Positions 6,078-43,201 of a DNA stretch of 64,000 nt are shown here, in pieces. Both the position numbers and the translations under genes were made by a program. The first letter of the stretch is position 1. Each line of letters opens with the position of its first letter. Source of the DNA: Candidatus Moraniibacteriota bacterium (lineage in GTDB: Bacteria; Patescibacteriota; Minisyncoccia; Moranbacterales; UBA1568). The stretch spans positions 12,147 to 76,146 of the forward strand of contig JACPGV010000007.1 of assembly GCA_016182385.1 (NCBI GenBank), given 5' to 3'. The notes beneath the pieces were generated by a model that saw only the letters and a program-made list of their open reading frames with translations, did not search any database and was not told the DNA's origin.

Positions 6078-6106
6078 TGACAGAATGTCAAAAAAGGTGT
6101 ATAATT
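6078..6106 (+). promoter_or_regulatory. sigma70-type promoter TTGACA-17-TATAAT
   Basis: Exact consensus -35 and -10 hexamers with a 17-nt spacer, upstream of the GC-rich ORF. Confidence 0.5.
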
Positions 6107-6175
6107 AACGTTTCAGAATGCACCACATTCTGGGCATGTACCTGAACAATTTTTTTTTTTTGATCCGTAGAAGTT

Positions 6176-7177
6176 TTGCGGATCGATGAAGTTTTGCCCT
6201 GCGGCATCGGGCGTGAAGAAAGTAGGCGTACCAGCGCCTTCAAATCCAAACATTCCTGCGTGCCTGGCATTGCACGTGGGAAAAGGAATCAAATGAAAAA
6301 AGTAACAATTGAACGCGGCCGCACGGTTGCGTTTGAAGATCTTCCCGCAAGGTCGATCGCCCTGGACGGGTATTGTCAAGGACCCGATGTCGACGTTGAG
6401 AACCAGCGGTTCTCGTTTGACCACCATGACAAGTGCCTTCGTCTTGTGACGAAGGCCACTTGCGAACAGGTCCTGGATGCACTCCTCCTAGGGCTCGATC
6501 CGACCGCGTTCACGATTTTCGTGAACGATGTTGACGGCGACACCGTTCTTTCGGTGTGGTTACTCCGCAACTCAAAGCGGGCCGCCGAAAAAACGGTGCG
6601 AGAGCTGGTTGCAACCGTGGGCGGTATCGATGCTCACGGCCCGGCCTACCCGGCAATCGACAATGCTCTGGCGGAGAAATTCTTCCAGGGCGTTATGAAG
6701 CCCGAGCTCGATCTGCGGCGCACGAAACAGTACGCAACGTGCGATCTCCAGACGCTCCTCGAACAATGCGTCGAAAATATCGACGCGTTACTCGCGGGAA
6801 AAATCGAGCTCGCCTCGAAAATGGAGCGTCATTTTGAAACCACTCACTGCGGTAGCGGCTGGGTGATGGCAAAGTCGGACGACTTCATTTTCGATCTCTT
6901 GTACGCGGAGGGGTACACTCGTGCCATTGCGTACAAGATTCTTCCCGACGGATCAGTGAACTATACCGTCGGCAAGAAATCCGAGCTGGTCGGCAAATTT
7001 CCCGTCGGCCCCGGTTCCAAGGTGAACTCCATCCTCTACGCGCTCAATGAGCGGGAAACGGGATGGGGAGGCGGTTCAACGATCGGTGGCTCCCCGCGCA
7101 ATGCGGATGGTTCCCGATCACGCCTTACCCCCGACGAGGTTTTTGAAATCGTCGAGAGAGTGGTGATGGAGGGATAA
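6176..7177 (+). CDS. hypothetical protein; GC-rich, likely horizontally acquired
   Basis: ORF with visibly higher GC than its neighbours. Alternative ATG start at 6293. Contains DHH-like and GGGS motifs in a non-canonical order, so no confident family call. Confidence 0.55.
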   Translation: MRIDEVLPCGIGREESRRTSAFKSKHSCVPGIARGKRNQMKKVTIERGRTVAFEDLPARSIALDGYCQGPDVDVENQRFSFDHHDKCLRLVTKATCEQVLDALLLGLDPTAFTIFVNDVDGDTVLSVWLLRNSKRAAEKTVRELVATVGGIDAHGPAYPAIDNALAEKFFQGVMKPELDLRRTKQYATCDLQTLLEQCVENIDALLAGKIELASKMERHFETTHCGSGWVMAKSDDFIFDLLYAEGYTRAIAYKILPDGSVNYTVGKKSELVGKFPVGPGSKVNSILYALNERETGWGGGSTIGGSPRNADGSRSRLTPDEVFEIVERVVMEG

Positions 7178-7254
7178 ATAAAGTCACCACACCGCCCAAC
7201 CTATCGGCTAATCACGATAGTGACTAGTCGACTGATGAATTAAGGAACTCATTA

Positions 7255-7316
7255 CCGCCACGCGGATACCCTGCGCAACACGCATCGGTATCCCGGGGCG
7301 GTTTTCTTTTTTTTAA
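7255..7316 (+). terminator. rho-independent terminator
   Basis: Long GC hairpin ccgccacgcggatacc...ggtatcccggggcgg followed by a T-run. Confidence 0.6.
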
Positions 7317-7353
7317 TTTCATCCCCCACTCATTTTTTAATCAAAACCACTTA

Positions 7354-34710: not shown

Positions 34711-37524
34711 TTACAGGTATTTTGCCGTAAAACTTTTCTTGCATGTTTTCAGTTTCTCCGGATGTCCAGAAAAAATCATCTCCCCGCCACTTTCGCCACC
34801 ATCTGGTCCAAGTTCCAATACCCAATCCGCCGCGCGAATAACATCAATGTTGTGTTCTACCACAAGCACGCTGTTTCCTTTATCAACAAGCGCTTCCAAA
34901 ACTTCCAAAAGTCGACGTACATCCTCAAAATGCAATCCGATCGTCGGTTCATCAAGAATATACAGCGTCTTACCGGTCGACTTCCGCGCCAATTCGGTTG
35001 CCAATTTGATACGTTGAGCCTCACCGCCGGAAAGATTGGTTGCCGATTGTCCAAGCACCAAATATCCGAGACCTACCTCATCCAATACGCGAAGTTTCTC
35101 CTCAATCATCGGCTGATCGAGAAAAAACGATCGCGCTTCTGTAACTGTCATTCGGAGCACTTGAGCAATATTCGTTCCACGATATTCAATAGAAAGTGTT
35201 TTTTGATTATAACGCGTTCCCTGACACACTTCACACGGCACATAAACATCAGGCAAAAGATACATTTCTATTTTTTTCAAGCCCCCACCCTGACAAGCCT
35301 CGCACCGACCACCACGCATATTGAAACTGAAATGACTGGCAGAGTATTTTTCTCGTTCCGCTTCTCCTGTCGCCGCAAACAAATCACGGATAAGGCTAAA
35401 AACTCCCGTATAGGTCGCCGCATTAGAACGCGGTGTACGGCCGATCGGGTCTTGATTGACGGAAATAACTTTATCGATATTTCCTAGTCCTTCAATTTTC
35501 TTATATTTCCCCGGCTCCGCCTTGGCATGATAGAAATGTTTGGCAAGCGCACGCGACAAAATATCATGAACGAGACTTGATTTTCCCGATCCAGAAACAC
35601 CAGAAACCGCCACCAACATACCAAGCGGAATTTTCACGTCTATATTTTTCAAATTATGCTCTTTTGCTCCATAGATAGTGATGGCTTCTTTCCCTAACGC
35701 GCGCGCCTTCTTTTTTTCGGACACTTTGCGCTTACCAGAAAGGTATTGTCCCGTAAGCAGAGTAGAGCGCAACAATTTGTCCGGCGTACCAGAAAAAATA
35801 ATTTCACCGCCCTCGCTCCCCGCTCCCGGGCCAAGATCGATAATATAATCCGCCCGTCGCATAATGGCAACATCATGCTCGACAATAACCAGCGAGTTAT
35901 TAGCAGCACGCAAATCCTCCAACGCGTGAATAAGTTTTTCCGTATCACGACTATGAAGGCCCACCGACGGCTCATCAAGAACATAAATAATACCCGACAA
36001 ACCAGACTTCATCTGTACCGACAAACGAATACGTTGAGCCTCGCCACCAGAAAGCGTGTCAGCACTGCGAGAAAGTTCCAAATATCCCAAACCCACTTTT
36101 TCCACGGCGCGCATCCGTGTCTCCATCTCACGAAATAAGGGGTCAACCATGTCCTTTTCCCCTTCTTTCAAAAGTTTTTCTTTCAAAGGTTTCAACGCGA
36201 TAAGAAATTTTTCCACACTCAACGAAACCACTTCATGAAGTGATACGCCGTTTACCAATACCGCGAGAGAAGATTTTTTTAATCGCTTCCCCTCGCAGGC
36301 AGGACAAAGTTTCGTCAGCATATAGGCCTCAATCTCCGCCCGCAGATGATCAGATTTTGTCTCACGATATTTCCGTTCAAGTAAACTGATAACACCAGGA
36401 AAAGCATCCTCTCTCTTCTCTTCTTCACCAAACACGATTGAACGATACTGTTTTGACGATAATTTTTTTATGGGAACATCAAGAGAAAATCTCTGTCGAC
36501 GACTCAAATCACGCAGCCACTGCATCGGACCATGACTGGCTTGTCGGTCGCTATTCATTTTACTCCACGGTCGAATGGCCCCCTCGGCGATTGAAAGGTT
36601 TTTATTCGGAATGATAAGTTCCGGATCAAATTCAAGCGTCACGCCAAGACCGGCACATTTCTCACACGCGCCTTCAGGGCTATTGAAAGAAAAATGACTC
36701 GGCGTAAGCTCGGGAACACCAAGACCACACTCCTCACATCGATATTCTTCATTATAGACGCGTTCTTCCCCGCTTCCATTCACGCGCAAAAAAAGCGTAC
36801 CGCTTCCGACACGAAAAGCCGTTTGCAAAGAATCAATAATGCGCTCCTTATCCGGTCGCGCCAAATCAATAGTCAAACGATCAACGATAACCCCGATATT
36901 GGAAATCTCCGTAGCGGATGCACGTGCCAAAGCTTCAGCCAAAGGAAGAACCTCTCCGTGAAACAAAACACGCACATATCCCCACGCATTCACCAAAGAA
37001 AGTGCTTCCCGTTCAGTTTTTTCTTCCAACGTTTTGCTGTAAGCCAAAAAAATAAGCGGCGTGTTATCAGGAAACGTCAAAAGTTCCTCCAAAATCGCGC
37101 GCACACTTTTTCGTTTGAGCGGTTTGGCGCAAGTAGGACAATGCGGATGTCCCATCTTGGCATACAGAATACGCAAATAATCATACACTTCTGTCATTGT
37201 TCCAACGGTCGAACGCGGGCTTTTGGAAACACTTTTTTGATCAATGGAAATAGCCGGGGAAAGATTATGAATAGCGTCAACTTCCGGCTTCTCAAAACCA
37301 TCAAGAAAATTCCGCGCATACGAAGAAAGCGACTCGACGTATCGTCGATTCGCCTCCGCAAACAATGTATCAAAGGCCAGTGAAGATTTTCCCGATCCGG
37401 AAAGACCCGTCACGACAACGAGCGAATCACGCGGAATATCAACATCCACGTTTTTCAAATTATTCACTCGTGCACCTCTAATTTCAATCACTGATTTTTT
37501 GCCTGGCATAGGGCCACCGCTCAT
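34711..37524 (-). CDS. uvrA: excinuclease ABC subunit A
   Basis: 937 aa. Tandem ABC ATPase modules, LSGGE and Walker motifs, zinc modules. Confidence 0.95.
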
Positions 37525-37584: not shown

Positions 37585-38844
37585 TCACCTCGCCGTCAAA
37601 AATTCCTTGTCCCGACGATGACGATGATACGCGATAGCAAAACGATGCGCCTCGCTATTCGCAAGCATGATACTTTCACGGAAATGAGCAAGTTCAACCG
37701 GAAGACCAATAATATCTTTTGGCCGATGATGTTTATCCTTCACGACACCAACCAAAAGAGGAAGCGTCCCACTTTGTGAAAATAATTTTTCCGCTACCTG
37801 ACGTTGCAACCACGCGCCGTCCGTCACCACGATATCAGGCATCCGCCATCGCGTATGTGTCAATCTCCGCCGGACAATTTCTTCCAACGCGGACAAATCA
37901 TTTCCCCGATGATTTTCCCGCAAACGAAACTTTCTGTATTCCTCCTTATTCTCTTTGCCGTTCTCAACGACTGTCATGACCCCAACGCTCGCCTCTCCTT
38001 GCAAGTGTGCCACATCAAAAGCCTCAATACGCACTCCCCAGCGTTTCTCCTCTGTCACCTCTTGATCCTGTCCTTTTATGAGAGCCACGTCCTGAATGTG
38101 TTCCAAAGCAAATACCGTTTTCTTTATCTCTCCCGCTCGTTCAAAATCAAGCTTCTTGGCCGCTTCTCGCATTTCACGTTGCAATTTTTTTATGATAGCT
38201 ATTTTATGTCCTTCAAAAAACAAACGAATATGAGTCACCGTTTGCCCATAGTCGCGCGCGGATACTTCTCCCACGCACACCCCAGGGCAAAGTCCGATCT
38301 GCGCGGAAAAACATTTTTTCGAATTCGGAACACACTTATCACGATACGGGAAAATCTTACGAATGATTTTCATTGCCTCGCGAAGCTGCGTCCCATGCGG
38401 AAATGGTCCAAAAATATATTTGACCGGATCGGTAAATTTTTTCTGTTCGATATCCCGACCACGAACAATAAGTATTCGCGGGAATTTTTCCTTAGTAATG
38501 ATTACATGATTATAGCTTTTGTCATCTTTGGCATCAGTATTATAAGGTGGTTGATATTTTTTGATGAGGCTGGTTTCGAGAATGAGCGCTTCAATGACCG
38601 AATCGGTTTCATGATAGCCGATGGCTCGCACACCCTCAAGCATCCGTGCGATTTTCGGCCCACGTGTTTCCATGATATCGGCTGAAAAATAACTTCTCAC
38701 CCGATCACGCAACACTGTTGCTTTACCGATATAGAGCACTTCTTGTTTCGCTCCCAAGAAAAAATACACTCCCGGAGTTTCCGGTAATGTGTTTTTCTTA
38801 CGAAACGTCGCCAATAATATTTTCTTTTTCCAAGGAAAAGACAT
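37585..38844 (-). CDS. uvrC: excinuclease ABC subunit C; lacks the C-terminal (HhH)2 domain
   Basis: GIY-YIG domain (GVYFF...YIGKA), UvrBC-interaction region and RNase H-like domain (IEAFDVAHLQG). Start placed at MSFPWKKK. Confidence 0.85.
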   Translation of the reverse strand: MSFPWKKKILLATFRKKNTLPETPGVYFFLGAKQEVLYIGKATVLRDRVRSYFSADIMETRGPKIARMLEGVRAIGYHETDSVIEALILETSLIKKYQPPYNTDAKDDKSYNHVIITKEKFPRILIVRGRDIEQKKFTDPVKYIFGPFPHGTQLREAMKIIRKIFPYRDKCVPNSKKCFSAQIGLCPGVCVGEVSARDYGQTVTHIRLFFEGHKIAIIKKLQREMREAAKKLDFERAGEIKKTVFALEHIQDVALIKGQDQEVTEEKRWGVRIEAFDVAHLQGEASVGVMTVVENGKENKEEYRKFRLRENHRGNDLSALEEIVRRRLTHTRWRMPDIVVTDGAWLQRQVAEKLFSQSGTLPLLVGVVKDKHHRPKDIIGLPVELAHFRESIMLANSEAHRFAIAYHRHRRDKEFLTAR

Positions 38845-38896
38845 AAGTAAAAACATTGAAACACTTCCCCAATAGAAAAGCAACTTTTGGCTCTCC

Positions 38897-38930
38897 TGTT
38901 GACTTTTTTTCATTTTGGATGTACAATATA
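38897..38930 (+). promoter_or_regulatory. promoter TTGACT-18-TACAAT
   Basis: Near-consensus hexamers upstream of the 38956 ORF, with a GAGGAG Shine-Dalgarno. Confidence 0.45.
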
Positions 38931-38955
38931 AGAAGTTCATTTTGAGGAGACTCAA

Positions 38956-39213
38956 ATGGAAGTTTCCGATATCTCCAAGCACGTTTTTTCACGCATGGGG
39001 GTACCAAGAAGTTTCTCCCTGGAAGCTTTTCAAAAAGCCTTCAGGGAAGAATTAAGAGCGAGGGGGCTTGGAAAAGACCTTGCTCAATATCGGTACCTTT
39101 TCGGACAAGTGGTCCGAAAGGTAAAGGGGTTTGTAAAAAAACCCCCAAAGAACCTTCCCGAGATACGGAAGGTACCCGATTTCAAAAGGTTAGCCGCTAA
39201 CGACTGCGACTAA
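38956..39213 (+). CDS. small basic ORF (85 aa), or the 5' part of a structured RNA
   Basis: Good promoter and SD, but the coding region is packed with strong hairpins. No family recognised. Confidence 0.3.
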   Translation: MEVSDISKHVFSRMGVPRSFSLEAFQKAFREELRARGLGKDLAQYRYLFGQVVRKVKGFVKKPPKNLPEIRKVPDFKRLAANDCD

Positions 39214-39353
39214 CCAAAACACAAATCCCCGGCCCAAAGGCCTTTCCGGTTTTTCTCCTGTCGTCGGAAACGCCTTATCCCCTGTGGCAGTTCCCCTGCT
39301 GTCGGGCCGGGTCTTCGATGCTAGTGCGCAATGCGTGCTGGCATCTTTTTTTA
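39214..39353 (+). ncRNA. candidate structured RNA segment or 3' UTR
   Basis: GC-rich. The long-range pairing ccccggccc / gggccggg encloses nested hairpins, and the terminator follows directly. Confidence 0.25.
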
Positions 39354-39380
39354 TAAAAAAAGAAGAACGATAGATATCGT
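39354..39380 (+). terminator. intrinsic terminator
   Basis: agaacgata-gat-atcgttct hairpin followed by a T-run. Confidence 0.55.
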
Positions 39381-39389
39381 TCTTTTTCT

Positions 39390-39722
39390 TCAAGTAAGCG
39401 TGAGAGGAGTCAAGACACCTCTTGATTCCGCTCGTCGCAAGAAGAAGCGGCACTCGAAAGTTTTTCCAAAGCGTTTCCGTACTTCCTGCATATACCGCAC
39501 CAACTCAAATGGAGCAATAAAAACGTTTCGTTCCTGTCCATGACGATCATACGCTGTTATTCCTCCTTTTTTCCCGAGCTGTCGTTCCATGAAACGCCTT
39601 GCTTCCAACGTGCACGGCTCAATAAAAAGCGTATATGATGATTGCGGTACCACTGTAGTTTTATTTCGAGGGAAAAATGGAATAACGTTCATTCTTTTCT
39701 CCTTCCTTTTTCTCTTCATCAA
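39390..39722 (-). CDS. hypothetical protein
   Basis: ORF only. No motif recognised. Confidence 0.3.
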   Translation of the reverse strand: MMKRKRKEKRMNVIPFFPRNKTTVVPQSSYTLFIEPCTLEARRFMERQLGKKGGITAYDRHGQERNVFIAPFELVRYMQEVRKRFGKTFECRFFLRRAESRGVLTPLTLT

Positions 39723-39854
39723 TAAAGTACTGCCCTCTCGATCACATCGAAAAAAGTAAGAATTAAATCATTAAACACTCCTTCATGATCTCCTCCACAG
39801 GGTAAAGAACGACCTTCAGGATAACGCTCTTCCTTTTTTTCGTCAATAATACGA

Positions 39855-42455
39855 TTATCTCGTAAGGTGTCGAGATAAAACCCGTTTCAAGTACCGCCCC
39901 GTATGCGAAAGTGCATTCTTCGCCACTTCTTCAGGTGTACCGGAAGCGACAATTTTTCCGCCACCCACTCCTCCCTCAGGACCAATGTCAATAATGTAGT
40001 CAGCCGATTTGATAAGATCCATATTGTGTTCGATAACTAGTACCGTGTTTCCTTTGACCACTAACGTCATAAGAATCTCAATCAATTTCCGCACATCTTC
40101 ATAATGCAGTCCGATCGTCGGTTCATCCAAAAGGTACACCGTGCGCTCAAGCATCGGCCGATACAATTCCGAAGCGATTTTAACACGTTGCGCTTCGCCG
40201 CCGGACAAAGTGGTCGCCGATTGACCAAGTTTCAGATATCCCAACCCGACTTCATTCAGCGTCTTCAAACGATCTGCTATCGCCGGAATATCGGAAAAAA
40301 ATGAAAAGGCTTCCTCAATGGTCATTTCGAGCACTTGATAAATATTCTTCTGTTTGTATTTCACCTCGAGAGTTTCCTTGGTAAAACGCTTTCCATCACA
40401 CACATCACACGGCACGTACACCGTCGGAAGAAAATGCATCTCCACGGCAAGAAATCCATTCCCCTCACATGTCTCGCAACGGCCACCGGGACGATTGAAA
40501 GAAAATCTTCCCACTTTCCAGCCGCGCACTCGCGCCTCTTCCGTCGAAGCAAACAAATCGCGAATATGCGTAAAAGCGCCGGTATACGTCGCCGGATTGG
40601 ATCGTGGCGTCCGACCAATCGGGCTCTGATCGATAAGCACCGCGCGCGACAGATACTCGCTCCCAACAAACGATTGACAATGAAAAACTTCGTTCGAACG
40701 ATAACGACGATCAAAGCGCGCTTGCAAATTTTTATAAACAATTTCGTACAGAAACGTCGATTTTCCTGATCCGGAGACGCCAGTAATAGCCACCAGACGA
40801 CCAAGCGGGATATCAACATTCAAATGAGCTATATTGAACAATCGCGCGCCACGAATTTTTATCGTCCCCTTCTCCTTGCTTCGGCGCGTTACTGGCACAG
40901 AAACCATCTCTTCGCCACGCAAATACCCCAGCGTGAGCGAACGAGAGTGATTTTTTTCCGCCATAAGCAATTCATCAAGGTATCCCGAAACAACCACGTT
41001 TCCGCCATGCACGCCGGCGCCGGGACCAATATCGACAATATAATCGGAAGCGTAAATAGTATCCTCATCATGTTCGACAATGATGATAGTATTGCCAAGA
41101 TCACGAAGCGATTGCAGTGTTTCGATCAAGCGTTCATTATCACGCTGATGCAAACCAATCGTCGGTTCATCAAGAACATAAAGTGCTCCAACCAACTGCG
41201 AACCGAGCTGACTCGCCAAACGAATACGCTGAGCCTCGCCGCCCGAAAGCGTGTTGGCGCGACGATCGAGTGTGAGATACGTCAGACCAACATTCAAAAG
41301 AAATGTAAGTCGCGCGCCAATCTCACGCAAAACAACCGCCGCGATCTGTTCTTCACGCTCAGAAAGCGTCAAAGTTTCGAAGAACGCGCTGGCTTCCTCA
41401 ATGGTCATCATGGAAAGCTCGACGATATTTTTTCCCCCGATACGGATATGCAACGCTTCCTCACGTAATCGCGACCCATGACACTCCCCGCATGGTTCAT
41501 CGCCAAAAAAATGTTTGGTACCAAGACCATTACACGCCGTGCACGCGCCGTACGGTGAATTAAAAGAAAAAAGTCGAGGTTCCACCTCCGGATAAGAAAA
41601 CCCATCATATGGACAAGAAAACTTCGAGGAAAGAACAAACGATTCTTTCCCGATACGAACAGTCACCAGACCACCGCTTTCTTCAAGCGCTCGTTCGACT
41701 GCCTCAGACAATCGTTCTCTCGATGTCTCGGGAAATTTCTCAAACTCCTCAAGTGTCATTTCATCAACGAGAAGATCGATGTCATGTTTCTTGTTTTTTG
41801 AAAGAAGAATTTGCTCTCGTAAACTTTTACGAACGCCGTCGAGAAATATTTCAGCAAACCCGTTGTGCAAAGCGTTGTACAAAAGTTGATAGTATTCCCC
41901 CTTTCGGCCGCGAACGACCGGCGCGGCAATGACGAGGGTTTCCGCCACTTTCTTTTTTCCTTTTTTCGGAAACGCCGCGCGAACACGTTCAGCGACAAGC
42001 AAAAGCATTTCTTCCGTCGACAATTTTTGTATTTCACGATCACACAGCAAACAATGCGGCCGACCAAGACGAGCATAGAACACTCGCAAATAATCATAGA
42101 TCTCCGTCACCGTCGCCACCGTCGAACGCGGATTCCGGCTGGCTGACTTTTGATCAATAGAAATAGCCGGCGACAAACCGACAATCTCATCGACATCGGG
42201 CTTTTGCATGGTATTCAAAAATTGTCGCGCGTACGCAGAAAGAGATTCGACGTATCGTCGTTGTCCTTCGGCAAAAATGGTGTCAAAAGCAAGAGAAGAC
42301 TTTCCCGATCCGGAAAGACCGGTAAACACTATCATCTTGTTTCGCGGCATGCGAACGGTAATATTTTTCAAGTTGTGCGTTCGTGCGCCGCGTACCTCAA
42401 TCCATTCACTGGGATCAATTTTTTTACGGCTAGAACGCTTCTGTTTCAAAAGCAT
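39855..42455 (-). CDS. UvrA paralog (second excinuclease ABC subunit A-like protein)
   Basis: [34 protein letters not shown] and two ABC modules. About 866 aa, shorter than the first uvrA. Confidence 0.9.
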   Translation of the reverse strand: MLLKQKRSSRKKIDPSEWIEVRGARTHNLKNITVRMPRNKMIVFTGLSGSGKSSLAFDTIFAEGQRRYVESLSAYARQFLNTMQKPDVDEIVGLSPAISIDQKSASRNPRSTVATVTEIYDYLRVFYARLGRPHCLLCDREIQKLSTEEMLLLVAERVRAAFPKKGKKKVAETLVIAAPVVRGRKGEYYQLLYNALHNGFAEIFLDGVRKSLREQILLSKNKKHDIDLLVDEMTLEEFEKFPETSRERLSEAVERALEESGGLVTVRIGKESFVLSSKFSCPYDGFSYPEVEPRLFSFNSPYGACTACNGLGTKHFFGDEPCGECHGSRLREEALHIRIGGKNIVELSMMTIEEASAFFETLTLSEREEQIAAVVLREIGARLTFLLNVGLTYLTLDRRANTLSGGEAQRIRLASQLGSQLVGALYVLDEPTIGLHQRDNERLIETLQSLRDLGNTIIIVEHDEDTIYASDYIVDIGPGAGVHGGNVVVSGYLDELLMAEKNHSRSLTLGYLRGEEMVSVPVTRRSKEKGTIKIRGARLFNIAHLNVDIPLGRLVAITGVSGSGKSTFLYEIVYKNLQARFDRRYRSNEVFHCQSFVGSEYLSRAVLIDQSPIGRTPRSNPATYTGAFTHIRDLFASTEEARVRGWKVGRFSFNRPGGRCETCEGNGFLAVEMHFLPTVYVPCDVCDGKRFTKETLEVKYKQKNIYQVLEMTIEEAFSFFSDIPAIADRLKTLNEVGLGYLKLGQSATTLSGGEAQRVKIASELYRPMLERTVYLLDEPTIGLHYEDVRKLIEILMTLVVKGNTVLVIEHNMDLIKSADYIIDIGPEGGVGGGKIVASGTPEEVAKNALSHTGRYLKRVLSRHLTR

Positions 42456-42502
42456 AGAATGACCCTTACGAATGGTCAGTATAGCCCAAAGAGAAGAAAG
42501 AA

Positions 42503-43201
42503 TCAAAGATATTCAAGAAGAGCACGATATTCGTCCTCCCGTTCCGGATGCACGACAAGCTCAATGGGACCCTGAGGGACCTGTTTGGCAAATGCGTTGA
42601 AATCACCAAACCAATCAAAGCTGACAAGATAATCGGATGTTGGCACCGGTTGTTTTTCATATGATGTCTTTGTTTGCTTCCAAAGAAAAGACAAAATATT
42701 TCCTACCAAAGCGCTATGCATATCGGTAAGCATACCCTTCTTTCCGAAACGCACATAACCAATATCATAACGTTTGGCGAGACCAAGAAAAACACGAAAA
42801 AATTTCGGAAAATGATGCACATATTCGTGCGAATTCAAACCATCCGGATATCGTCGGAAGAGTTCGTGAAAACGCTCTATCTGATCCCGCCATTCCGTTT
42901 CCACTTTTTTCGCGGTTAATAATCCAAAAAAATATCGCCACAAAAAGTTCGCTCCGCGCAAAAACGTATTTTCATGCATCTTATATCCGCGCTTGAGCAA
43001 TCCAATAAGCTCAAGATGAAGATCGATTTTTACACCGGTGGCCAGCAATGCTTCGGCCTGTTCGTGAGAAACATAATGAATAAGCACGGACACGCGATCA
43101 ATTTTTCCCTCACGCACCAAACGCAAAATGGGTTCCGCCGTTTGACGGATCCCATAATCATCAGCAACAACGACAAACCTCTCCCGCGTATCTTCTGTCA
43201 T
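42503..43201 (-). CDS. ChbG/YdjC-family carbohydrate deacetylase
   Basis: FVVVADDYGI N-terminal motif of the YdjC family. Confidence 0.7.
   Translation of the reverse strand: MTEDTRERFVVVADDYGIRQTAEPILRLVREGKIDRVSVLIHYVSHEQAEALLATGVKIDLHLELIGLLKRGYKMHENTFLRGANFLWRYFFGLLTAKKVETEWRDQIERFHELFRRYPDGLNSHEYVHHFPKFFRVFLGLAKRYDIGYVRFGKKGMLTDMHSALVGNILSFLWKQTKTSYEKQPVPTSDYLVSFDWFGDFNAFAKQVPQGPIELVVHPEREDEYRALLEYL

Follow-up and report, generated by a model that had tools for sequence, protein, structure and literature searches.

Contig JACPGV010000007.1 of Candidatus Moraniibacteriota bacterium (metagenome-assembled genome GCA_016182385.1) carries, within an analyzed stretch of 64,000 nucleotides (nt) referred to here as the window, a short plus-strand unit at positions 38899-39352. 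The unit consists of a promoter, a ribosome-binding site (RBS), an open reading frame (ORF), a GC-rich tail of ~100 nt, and an intrinsic terminator; its ORF is recorded in GenBank as hypothetical protein HYV45_02955. Nearly all other genes of the window lie on the minus strand. Divergently upstream of the unit, both on the minus strand and both confirmed by Pfam, are uvrC (37585-38844) and uvrA (34711-37524). Downstream, a convergent ORF of 100 aa with its own terminator is followed by a second uvrA-like gene. A first-pass annotation of the window had described the unit as either a small ORF or a structured RNA of about 450 nt. In this study, the anatomy, homologs, folding, and 3' end of the unit were analyzed computationally, and the results are weighed with respect to these and other readings.

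Organization of the unit

A consensus scan placed the -35 hexamer TTGACT at 38899-38904 and the -10 hexamer TACAAT at 38922-38927, separated by a spacer of 17 nt. The same -35 box occurs in 18 loci of the protein family described below. When the upstream regions of these 18 loci were compared, the promoter TTGACT-17-TATAAT and a motif in the 5' untranslated region (5'UTR), AGTTnnTTTTAACAA, were found to be kept throughout. The window follows this family arrangement (TTGACT-17-TAtAAT with AGTTnnTTTTAA) with versions of its own, namely TACAAT and, shortly 3' of this -10 box, AGTTCATTTT (38934-38943). The 5'UTR motif AGTTnnTTTTAACAA could be an operator or an RNA element. The Shine-Dalgarno (SD) sequence GAGGAG (38944-38949) was recognized from sequence and fold; it lies 6 nt 5' of the ATG at 38956 and is predicted to be partially taken up by a small hairpin (UUUGAG / CUCAAA) that forms locally. 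The ORF (38956-39213) encodes 85 aa with an isoelectric point (pI) of 10.1, and contains 19 lysine and arginine residues versus 10 aspartate and glutamate residues. It is followed by the tail, whose GC content is 0.53-0.54 versus ~0.45 nearby. The intrinsic terminator (39317-39352), identified from sequence, fold, and orthologs, has a 13-bp stem, GAUGCUAGUGCGC-AAU-GCGUGCUGGCAUC (39317-39345), with 7 GC pairs and a 3-nt loop, and then U7, as is typical of this class of terminators.

Most of this anatomy had been recognized in the first-pass annotation. The basic 85-aa ORF with its GAGGAG, the divergent position upstream of uvrC-uvrA, the terminator, and the long-range pairing ccccggccc/gggccggg in a GC-rich tail were all recovered here. 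The two promoter hexamers stand as it gave them, but its spacer of 18 nt has been revised. The stem-loops that it listed are likewise present, except that the 5' arm of its first example had been mis-transcribed; the actual arm is tctccctggaagc, part of a mismatched stem of 18 bp.

A small-protein family divergent from uvrC

A single-sequence, word-indexed search of 5.8 billion proteins matched the window ORF to itself only. This first suggested that the ORF was spurious, a view that was overturned by synteny-guided comparison. For this comparison, 80 uvrC loci from species-representative genomes were fetched, and context look-ups in further lineages confirmed the arrangement (L numbers below for both). 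Most Moranbacteria have, in the same place upstream of uvrC, a divergent ORF that is 80-190 aa long (L001-L015, L085-L088, and L092-L097; L084 is an exception), and the window ORF takes this position, being monocistronic, on the opposite strand, and head-to-head with uvrC. In BLASTP comparisons with the syntenic ORFs, the window ORF matched those of L005 (2e-8) and L011 (2e-7). Two loci, L081 and L082, show 100% identity with the window and are therefore uninformative as strain variants. When 1.84 billion cluster representatives were searched exhaustively with a profile, 49 relatives were obtained at E <= 1e-3, of which 47 are 74-205 aa long; two longer, repeat-rich matches (P0042 and P0052) were excluded from the family. 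Scans of the window ORF and its relatives against Pfam, PHROG, and NCBIfam returned nothing meaningful.

A hidden Markov model (HMM) was built from 55 members, with the window sequence left out, and was run against the window translated in six frames (1198 segments). It gave one match (E = 1.8e-4), which is the annotated frame (+38932-39210); the runner-up segment had an E-value of 0.76. Among four close orthologs (the L001/L095/L096/L097 subclade), the ratio of nonsynonymous to synonymous substitution rates (dN/dS) was 0.12-0.24, showing purifying selection in the family where close orthologs are available. The core motif of the family is F..AF..VAH.H.I.H......YN.FF..V...V, in which F, A-H, and Y are nearly invariant, and the window protein retains F25 and Y45 of this core. 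Three helices are predicted for the window protein (residues 3-14, 22-36, and 42-61), followed by a disordered tail ending in PDFKRLAANDCD. AlphaFold2 gave a confident three-helix core, with a predicted local distance difference test (pLDDT) score of 77. The C-terminal PDFKRLAANDCD resembles RPDFKQLAAHDID in relative P0046, VDYKQLAAHDLFN in L005, and VDNKMLAAGDYDD in L011. Across the family, the promoter, 5'UTR, and terminator are better conserved than the coding sequence. These comparisons define a small-protein family that had not been described before, is specific to Candidatus Moranbacteria, and is tightly linked to uvrC/uvrA.

In three loci the unit is duplicated: L001 (upstream-region coordinates 653-1072), L096, and L097 have a second tandem copy that follows the terminator of the first without a gap in between genes, is preceded by a TTGACTTTTATGG promoter of its own, and encodes a paralog that resembles the L009/L010 type.

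Secondary structure of the transcript

The region 38930-39350 has a predicted minimum free energy of -173.3 kcal/mol, compared with -126.1 +/- 6.3 kcal/mol for dinucleotide shuffles (z = -7.55). When folded separately against such shuffles, the ORF gave z = -4.6 and the tail z = -6.2. When the 64 kb were tiled into 152 windows of 420 nt (mean z -0.83, sd 1.57), the unit emerged as the strongest outlier, which bears out the exceptional density of hairpins remarked on in the first-pass annotation. That annotation had matched the unit to neither transfer-messenger RNA (tmRNA), signal recognition particle RNA, RNase P, nor 6S RNA, and the same result was obtained here by database search. Rfam 15 at the gathering score gave zero matches across the whole window, and at E <= 10 it gave only chance-level matches in the region 38700-39900, the best of them inside the unit scoring 21.7 bits against a threshold of 141. 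ARAGORN found neither a tmRNA nor a tRNA. An origin of the hairpins from a repeat or mobile element was also considered and rejected, as no other copy exists in the window.

Five hairpins are predicted inside the ORF. The first (39010-39053) has 18 bp with internal mismatches and spans codons 19-33 (SFSLEAFQKAFREEL). The second (39056-39085) lies over RARGLGKDLAQ, where the window protein leaves the AH.H.I.H motif of the family. The third (39094-39123, 12 bp, taccttttcgga/tccgaaaggta) lies over YLFGQVVRKV, and two hairpins of 7 bp follow, GGGGUUU / AAACCCC at 39126-39145 and ACCUUCC / GGAAGGU at 39152-39173. Some of the hairpins occur at homologous places, for example in helix 3 (YLFGQV...). 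The structure goes beyond what the protein calls for. When the codons of the ORF were permuted synonymously, keeping the protein and the codon counts, the permuted sequences folded with -71.0 +/- 5.2 kcal/mol versus -94.0 kcal/mol for the native sequence (z = -4.43), and 0 of 200 permutations were as stable. This indicates that codon choice contributes to the hairpins. In the relatives, the corresponding z-scores were +0.6 to -1.0 (L092, L084, L083, and L089) or -2.5 to -3.8 (L085 and L088), and the dinucleotide-shuffle z-scores of most other relatives' ORFs were +0.2 to -3.3, with only L014 reaching -5.0. The excess of ORF structure is present in only some relatives, and is therefore lineage-specific.

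Conserved elements of the 3' untranslated region

The tail of the unit, or 3'UTR, is predicted to fold into a domain (39228-39311) closed by CCCGGCCC / GGGCCGGG; the closing stem cccggccc/gggccggg pairs 39228-39235 with 39304-39311. The domain encloses two hairpins and displays C-rich motifs in both hairpin loops and in the junction. UCUCCUG, complementary to AGGAGA of the unit's own SD, lies in a 14-nt apical loop at 39254-39260. UCCCCUG occurs twice, at 39278-39284 in the junction, where it is predicted to be unpaired, and at 39292-39298 in or at the second apical loop, where it aligns with the family core CCUCCCUG. Thus, three copies of UCYCCUG are found within 45 nt of the tail, compared with 13 when both strands of the whole window are counted. 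A further TCTCCTG heptamer, the fourth, is located at 38892-38898 (plus strand), directly 5' of the -35 box; the uvrC strand reads CAGGAGA there.

Comparable 3'UTR stem-loops were found in L083, L085, L088, L089, L011, L014, and L015. The tails of the short-protein branch of the family (the window, L083, L085, L088, L089, L092, L003, L005, L011, L014, and L015) share a common plan, in which a stem-loop domain presenting C-rich, anti-SD-like loops or single strands is followed by a two-tier terminator. C-rich pentamers are enriched 13-fold in these 11 tails (0.068 per nt versus 0.0052 per nt in the genomes concerned), and a MAFFT alignment of the tails contains the aligned core CCUCCCUG / UCCCCUG. 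A combined MAFFT and RNAalifold analysis of 10 tails aligned nothing beyond the basal stem of the terminator. This stem, GAYRCC / GGYRUC, retains its pairing in the orthologs by compensatory changes, and at 4 of its 6 positions pairs are seen in which both sides have changed. Upstream of it, the architecture of the stem-loops varies too strongly from tail to tail for a covariation analysis. A covariance model of the module, searched against 516 kb (the window plus the loci), matched only 3'UTRs of this family; it recovered L003, on which it had not been trained (E = 0.064), and possibly L013 (E = 0.48). The structured tail pointed out in the first-pass annotation therefore contains a conserved RNA element of the family. 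The longer-protein branch has the terminator only, without the C-rich motif.

A single position of the terminator stem differs between the strain variants L085/L086 and L087, which have an identical protein: GGGGAUGUU in one and GGGGACGUU in the other. Opposite ...AGCGUCCCC, a C-G pair thereby replaces a U-G wobble.

Interpretation of the unit

Taken together, these results indicate, with a probability of roughly 80%, that the unit is a monocistronic mRNA gene for a small protein and that the hairpins belong to the mRNA and do not constitute a separate RNA gene. Of the two readings proposed in the first-pass annotation, the ORF is upheld by its homologs, by the HMM, and by the dN/dS values. 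Best supported is the reading of an otherwise ordinary mRNA that would be strongly expressed and would encode a small basic protein. As in an ordinary small-protein gene, a sigma-70 promoter, an SD, an ORF, a GC-rich hairpin, and a U-tract are present; however, the unit folds far more strongly than any other 420-nt stretch of the window, and the folding of its ORF lies beyond the range of synonymous recoding.

In such a gene, the strong sigma-70-type promoter (38899-38927) would give rise to a transcript of ~415-420 nt. Initiation at GAGGAG/ATG would yield the 85-aa basic protein, with three helices and a disordered tail bearing the C-terminal motif, and transcription would end at the intrinsic terminator (39317-39352). 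The hairpins of the ORF, formed partly at synonymous sites, may stabilize the message or slow its translation. The 3'UTR module, with its UCYCCUG / CCUCCCUG loops and the terminator, may protect the 3' end and possibly regulate translation; most simply, the module and terminator would act together as a 3'-end stabilizer. If so, a false lead is removed, in that the strongest RNA-structure signal of the 64-kb window would come from an mRNA instead of a new ribozyme or large noncoding RNA.

Several points weigh against this interpretation. The score of the leave-one-out HMM match is modest (18 bits). At the place of the nearly invariant Ala-His, the window protein has L33 and R34, and the H.H..H motif is gone; the window ORF could therefore be a decaying or re-purposed copy. 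No relative above ~35% amino acid identity was found in the 5.8-billion-protein search or in the family alignment, and with the nearest relative at ~35%, purifying selection and covariation are unmeasurable in the window lineage itself. Furthermore, most relatives are without the ORF structure, which leaves its role as a candidate only.

The likeliest of the alternatives, though doubtful, is that the transcript has a dual function. In addition to encoding the protein, the 3'UTR (39214-39352) would act as a riboregulator, with UCYCCUG pairing with the SDs of its own or of other mRNAs. Ribosomes would thereby be kept from loading, and substrates for RNase III would be formed; the target could be the mRNA itself, or the 3'UTR could give rise to a small RNA (sRNA) with a C-rich seed. 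The closest parallel is the icaR mRNA of Staphylococcus aureus, in which a UCCCCUG in the 3'UTR has been experimentally validated to pair with its own RBS, block initiation, and create an RNase III substrate; UCCCC motifs of S. aureus sRNAs likewise serve in target binding and initiation block (PMC3868564). The window unit has the identical heptamer, also in the 3'UTR of a monocistronic small-protein mRNA and also complementary to purine-rich ribosome-binding sites. The arrangement is different, however. The icaR motif lies 260 nt downstream of the stop codon in a 3'UTR several hundred nt long (PMC3868564), whereas the motif of the window occurs three times, no more than 100 nt from the stop, in a closed stem-loop domain beside the terminator.

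Comparison may also be made with the sRNAs of Firmicutes that have C-rich loops, e.g. RsaE/RoxS, whose seed motifs are of the UCCC type. The window element resembles them in having C-rich motifs in the loops of hairpins that precede an intrinsic terminator, but it is the 3' end of an mRNA, and no small-RNA family of Rfam 15 matches it meaningfully at E <= 10.

The clustering of the three heptamers, mostly in predicted loops or the junction, the retention of the CCUCCCUG core in 10-11 diverged 3'UTRs, where it is 13-fold enriched, and the restriction of the module to this gene family all favor a riboregulator. So do the identity of the heptamer with that of icaR and, in L015, a perfect 8-bp match of CCUCCCUG to its own SD, CAGGGAGG. 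Matches of 5-8 bp to the own SD can be formed in every locus. On the other hand, purine-rich SDs match any C-rich tract, and the duplex energies between own SD and own tail were no better than those of dinucleotide shuffles (summed p = 0.16), with only L015 standing out (0.024). An anti-SD function of the 3'UTR, in cis or in trans, therefore stays at the level of hypothesis, and we consider it rather unlikely. The longer-protein branch manages without the motif, and neither an internal promoter nor a processing site is evident in the window unit. Unlike icaR, the unit belongs to an uncultivated bacterium of the Candidate Phyla Radiation (CPR).

A second alternative concerns the hairpins of the ORF, which might be a neutral mutational by-product in a degenerating or relaxed copy, generated by template-switch "correction" of quasi-palindromes to inverted repeats that are close to perfect, without selection on RNA structure. 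The stems are nearly perfect and arranged in tandem, as such a process would leave them, and the structure excess is lineage-specific. In addition, the segment where the protein departs from the family consensus, including the loss of Ala-His and His, coincides exactly with the 3' arm of the hairpin at 39010-39053 and all of the hairpin at 39056-39085. This coincidence fits either selection for structure or mutational palindromization in a relaxed copy. A degenerating copy would be hard to reconcile with the intact frame and with an RBS, promoter, and terminator that are all kept; the C-terminal DFK.LAA.D is also retained, as in P0046, L005, and L011. Moreover, a structure excess is found independently in L014, L088, and L085, and the minus strand of the unit folds slightly worse (z = -6.05) than the plus strand, which is not expected from DNA-level palindromes alone. 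A neutral origin thus seems improbable.

About equally improbable, in our estimate, is the fuller version of a dual-function mRNA, in which the 3'UTR module would serve as a cis- or trans-acting regulatory RNA and the ORF structure would have been selected for a long-lived RNA. If true, it would tie the expression of a small protein linked to repair to control at the post-transcriptional level. To our knowledge, no riboregulators have been characterized in CPR bacteria, and the conserved anti-SD-type element may offer a cheap entry point to 3'UTR-based regulation in this group.

The C-rich, G-poor tail might instead be a Rho-utilization (rut) site that provides back-up termination before the convergent gene. 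C exceeds G in 11 of the 11 tails (C 0.25-0.50, G 0.12-0.24), and the region is untranslated and faces the convergent gene. Nevertheless, this is very unlikely, because a specific sequence core is conserved, beyond mere base composition, and lies within stable stems, unlike rut sites, which lack structure. In addition, the tail leads directly into a strong intrinsic terminator.

Finally, a stand-alone structured noncoding RNA of ~420 nt with a fortuitous ORF, for which the extreme z-score and the self-only protein match might speak, is hardly credible given the homology of the ORF to a protein family under purifying selection, its unique recovery in the correct frame, the absence of any Rfam, tRNA, or tmRNA match, and ORF stems that are unconserved across orthologs; the first-pass annotation itself had named orthologs that conserve the protein, with a dN/dS well below 1 and without covariation in the stems, as evidence that would speak against it, and this is what is observed for such an RNA at the family level.

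Candidate functions of the protein family

Two functional leads are available for the family: its strict association with uvrC/uvrA and a QLxLF-type motif in many relatives. Of 57 family members analyzed, 11 have QLxLF in its strict form versus 0.09 expected, and 24 have a looser form versus 2.5 expected. QLxLF is the consensus peptide for binding to the beta sliding clamp (PMC4549789). The family thus resembles known clamp binders (PMC4549789) in that many members carry a C-terminal QLxLF and that their genes adjoin repair genes. Its N-terminal three-helix domain, however, is unlike any known clamp partner, and clamp binding by the family is a candidate function by motif only. The window protein does not have QLxLF and is therefore not filed as a clamp binder. 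These features suggest, only as a lead, that the family may be connected with nucleotide excision repair or the replisome. In the reduced genomes of CPR bacteria, the family thus offers a concrete candidate for an accessory factor of DNA repair or of the replisome.

In many relatives (P0002-P0044), QLxLF or QLxLP(G)F usually lies 20-30 residues from the C-terminus and is followed by a conserved helix, PPEEFLQWR... or LRDELAxRP. In L015 (QQLRLF) and L014 (QQQLPL), the motif is at the extreme C-terminus.

Neighboring genes and a second structured unit

The convergent ORF downstream of the unit (39390-39692, minus strand) has its terminator at 39363-39384. It has no Pfam match, and the only resemblance that it showed to the fetched loci is a weak match of 36% over 47 aa in L004. 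At its position, relatives have a different ORF of ~160 aa (MSGYVESHV...).

Two uvrA-like genes flank the locus, at 34711-37524 and 39855-42506 (both minus strand), and the same pair flanks the unit in L085-L087. The former matches UvrA_inter and UvrA_DNA-bind, while the latter matches only UvrA_inter among the matches listed. Judging from this domain content, the gene at 39855-42506 may be a class-II-type UvrA paralog.

Directly upstream of the uvrC start lies the motif GGGGAAsTGyTTsAATG (38854-38873, minus-strand reading). This part of the uvrC leader or promoter region is kept, whole or partly, in L003, L014, L085, and L088. The motif could be an operator, or it could be part of the uvrC RBS with an alternative ATG at 38856.

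Another plus-strand unit with a promoter at one end and a terminator at the other is found at 6079-7320, in a region that otherwise belongs to the minus strand. Its parts are a promoter (ttgaca-17-tataat, 6079-6107), a 5' leader of ~190 nt that is rich in hairpins (z = -2.8), and an ORF (6176-7177) that has no Pfam match and a GC content of ~0.57 versus ~0.45 for the window. Its terminator, GGAUACC...GGUAUCC, is of the same style as those of the small-protein family. A genome-wide terminator style was considered as an explanation and rejected, as the other terminators of the window are simple hairpins and only this unit ends similarly. The 420-nt windows at 6079-7320, with z-scores of -5.0 to -5.6, are the next most structured of the window.

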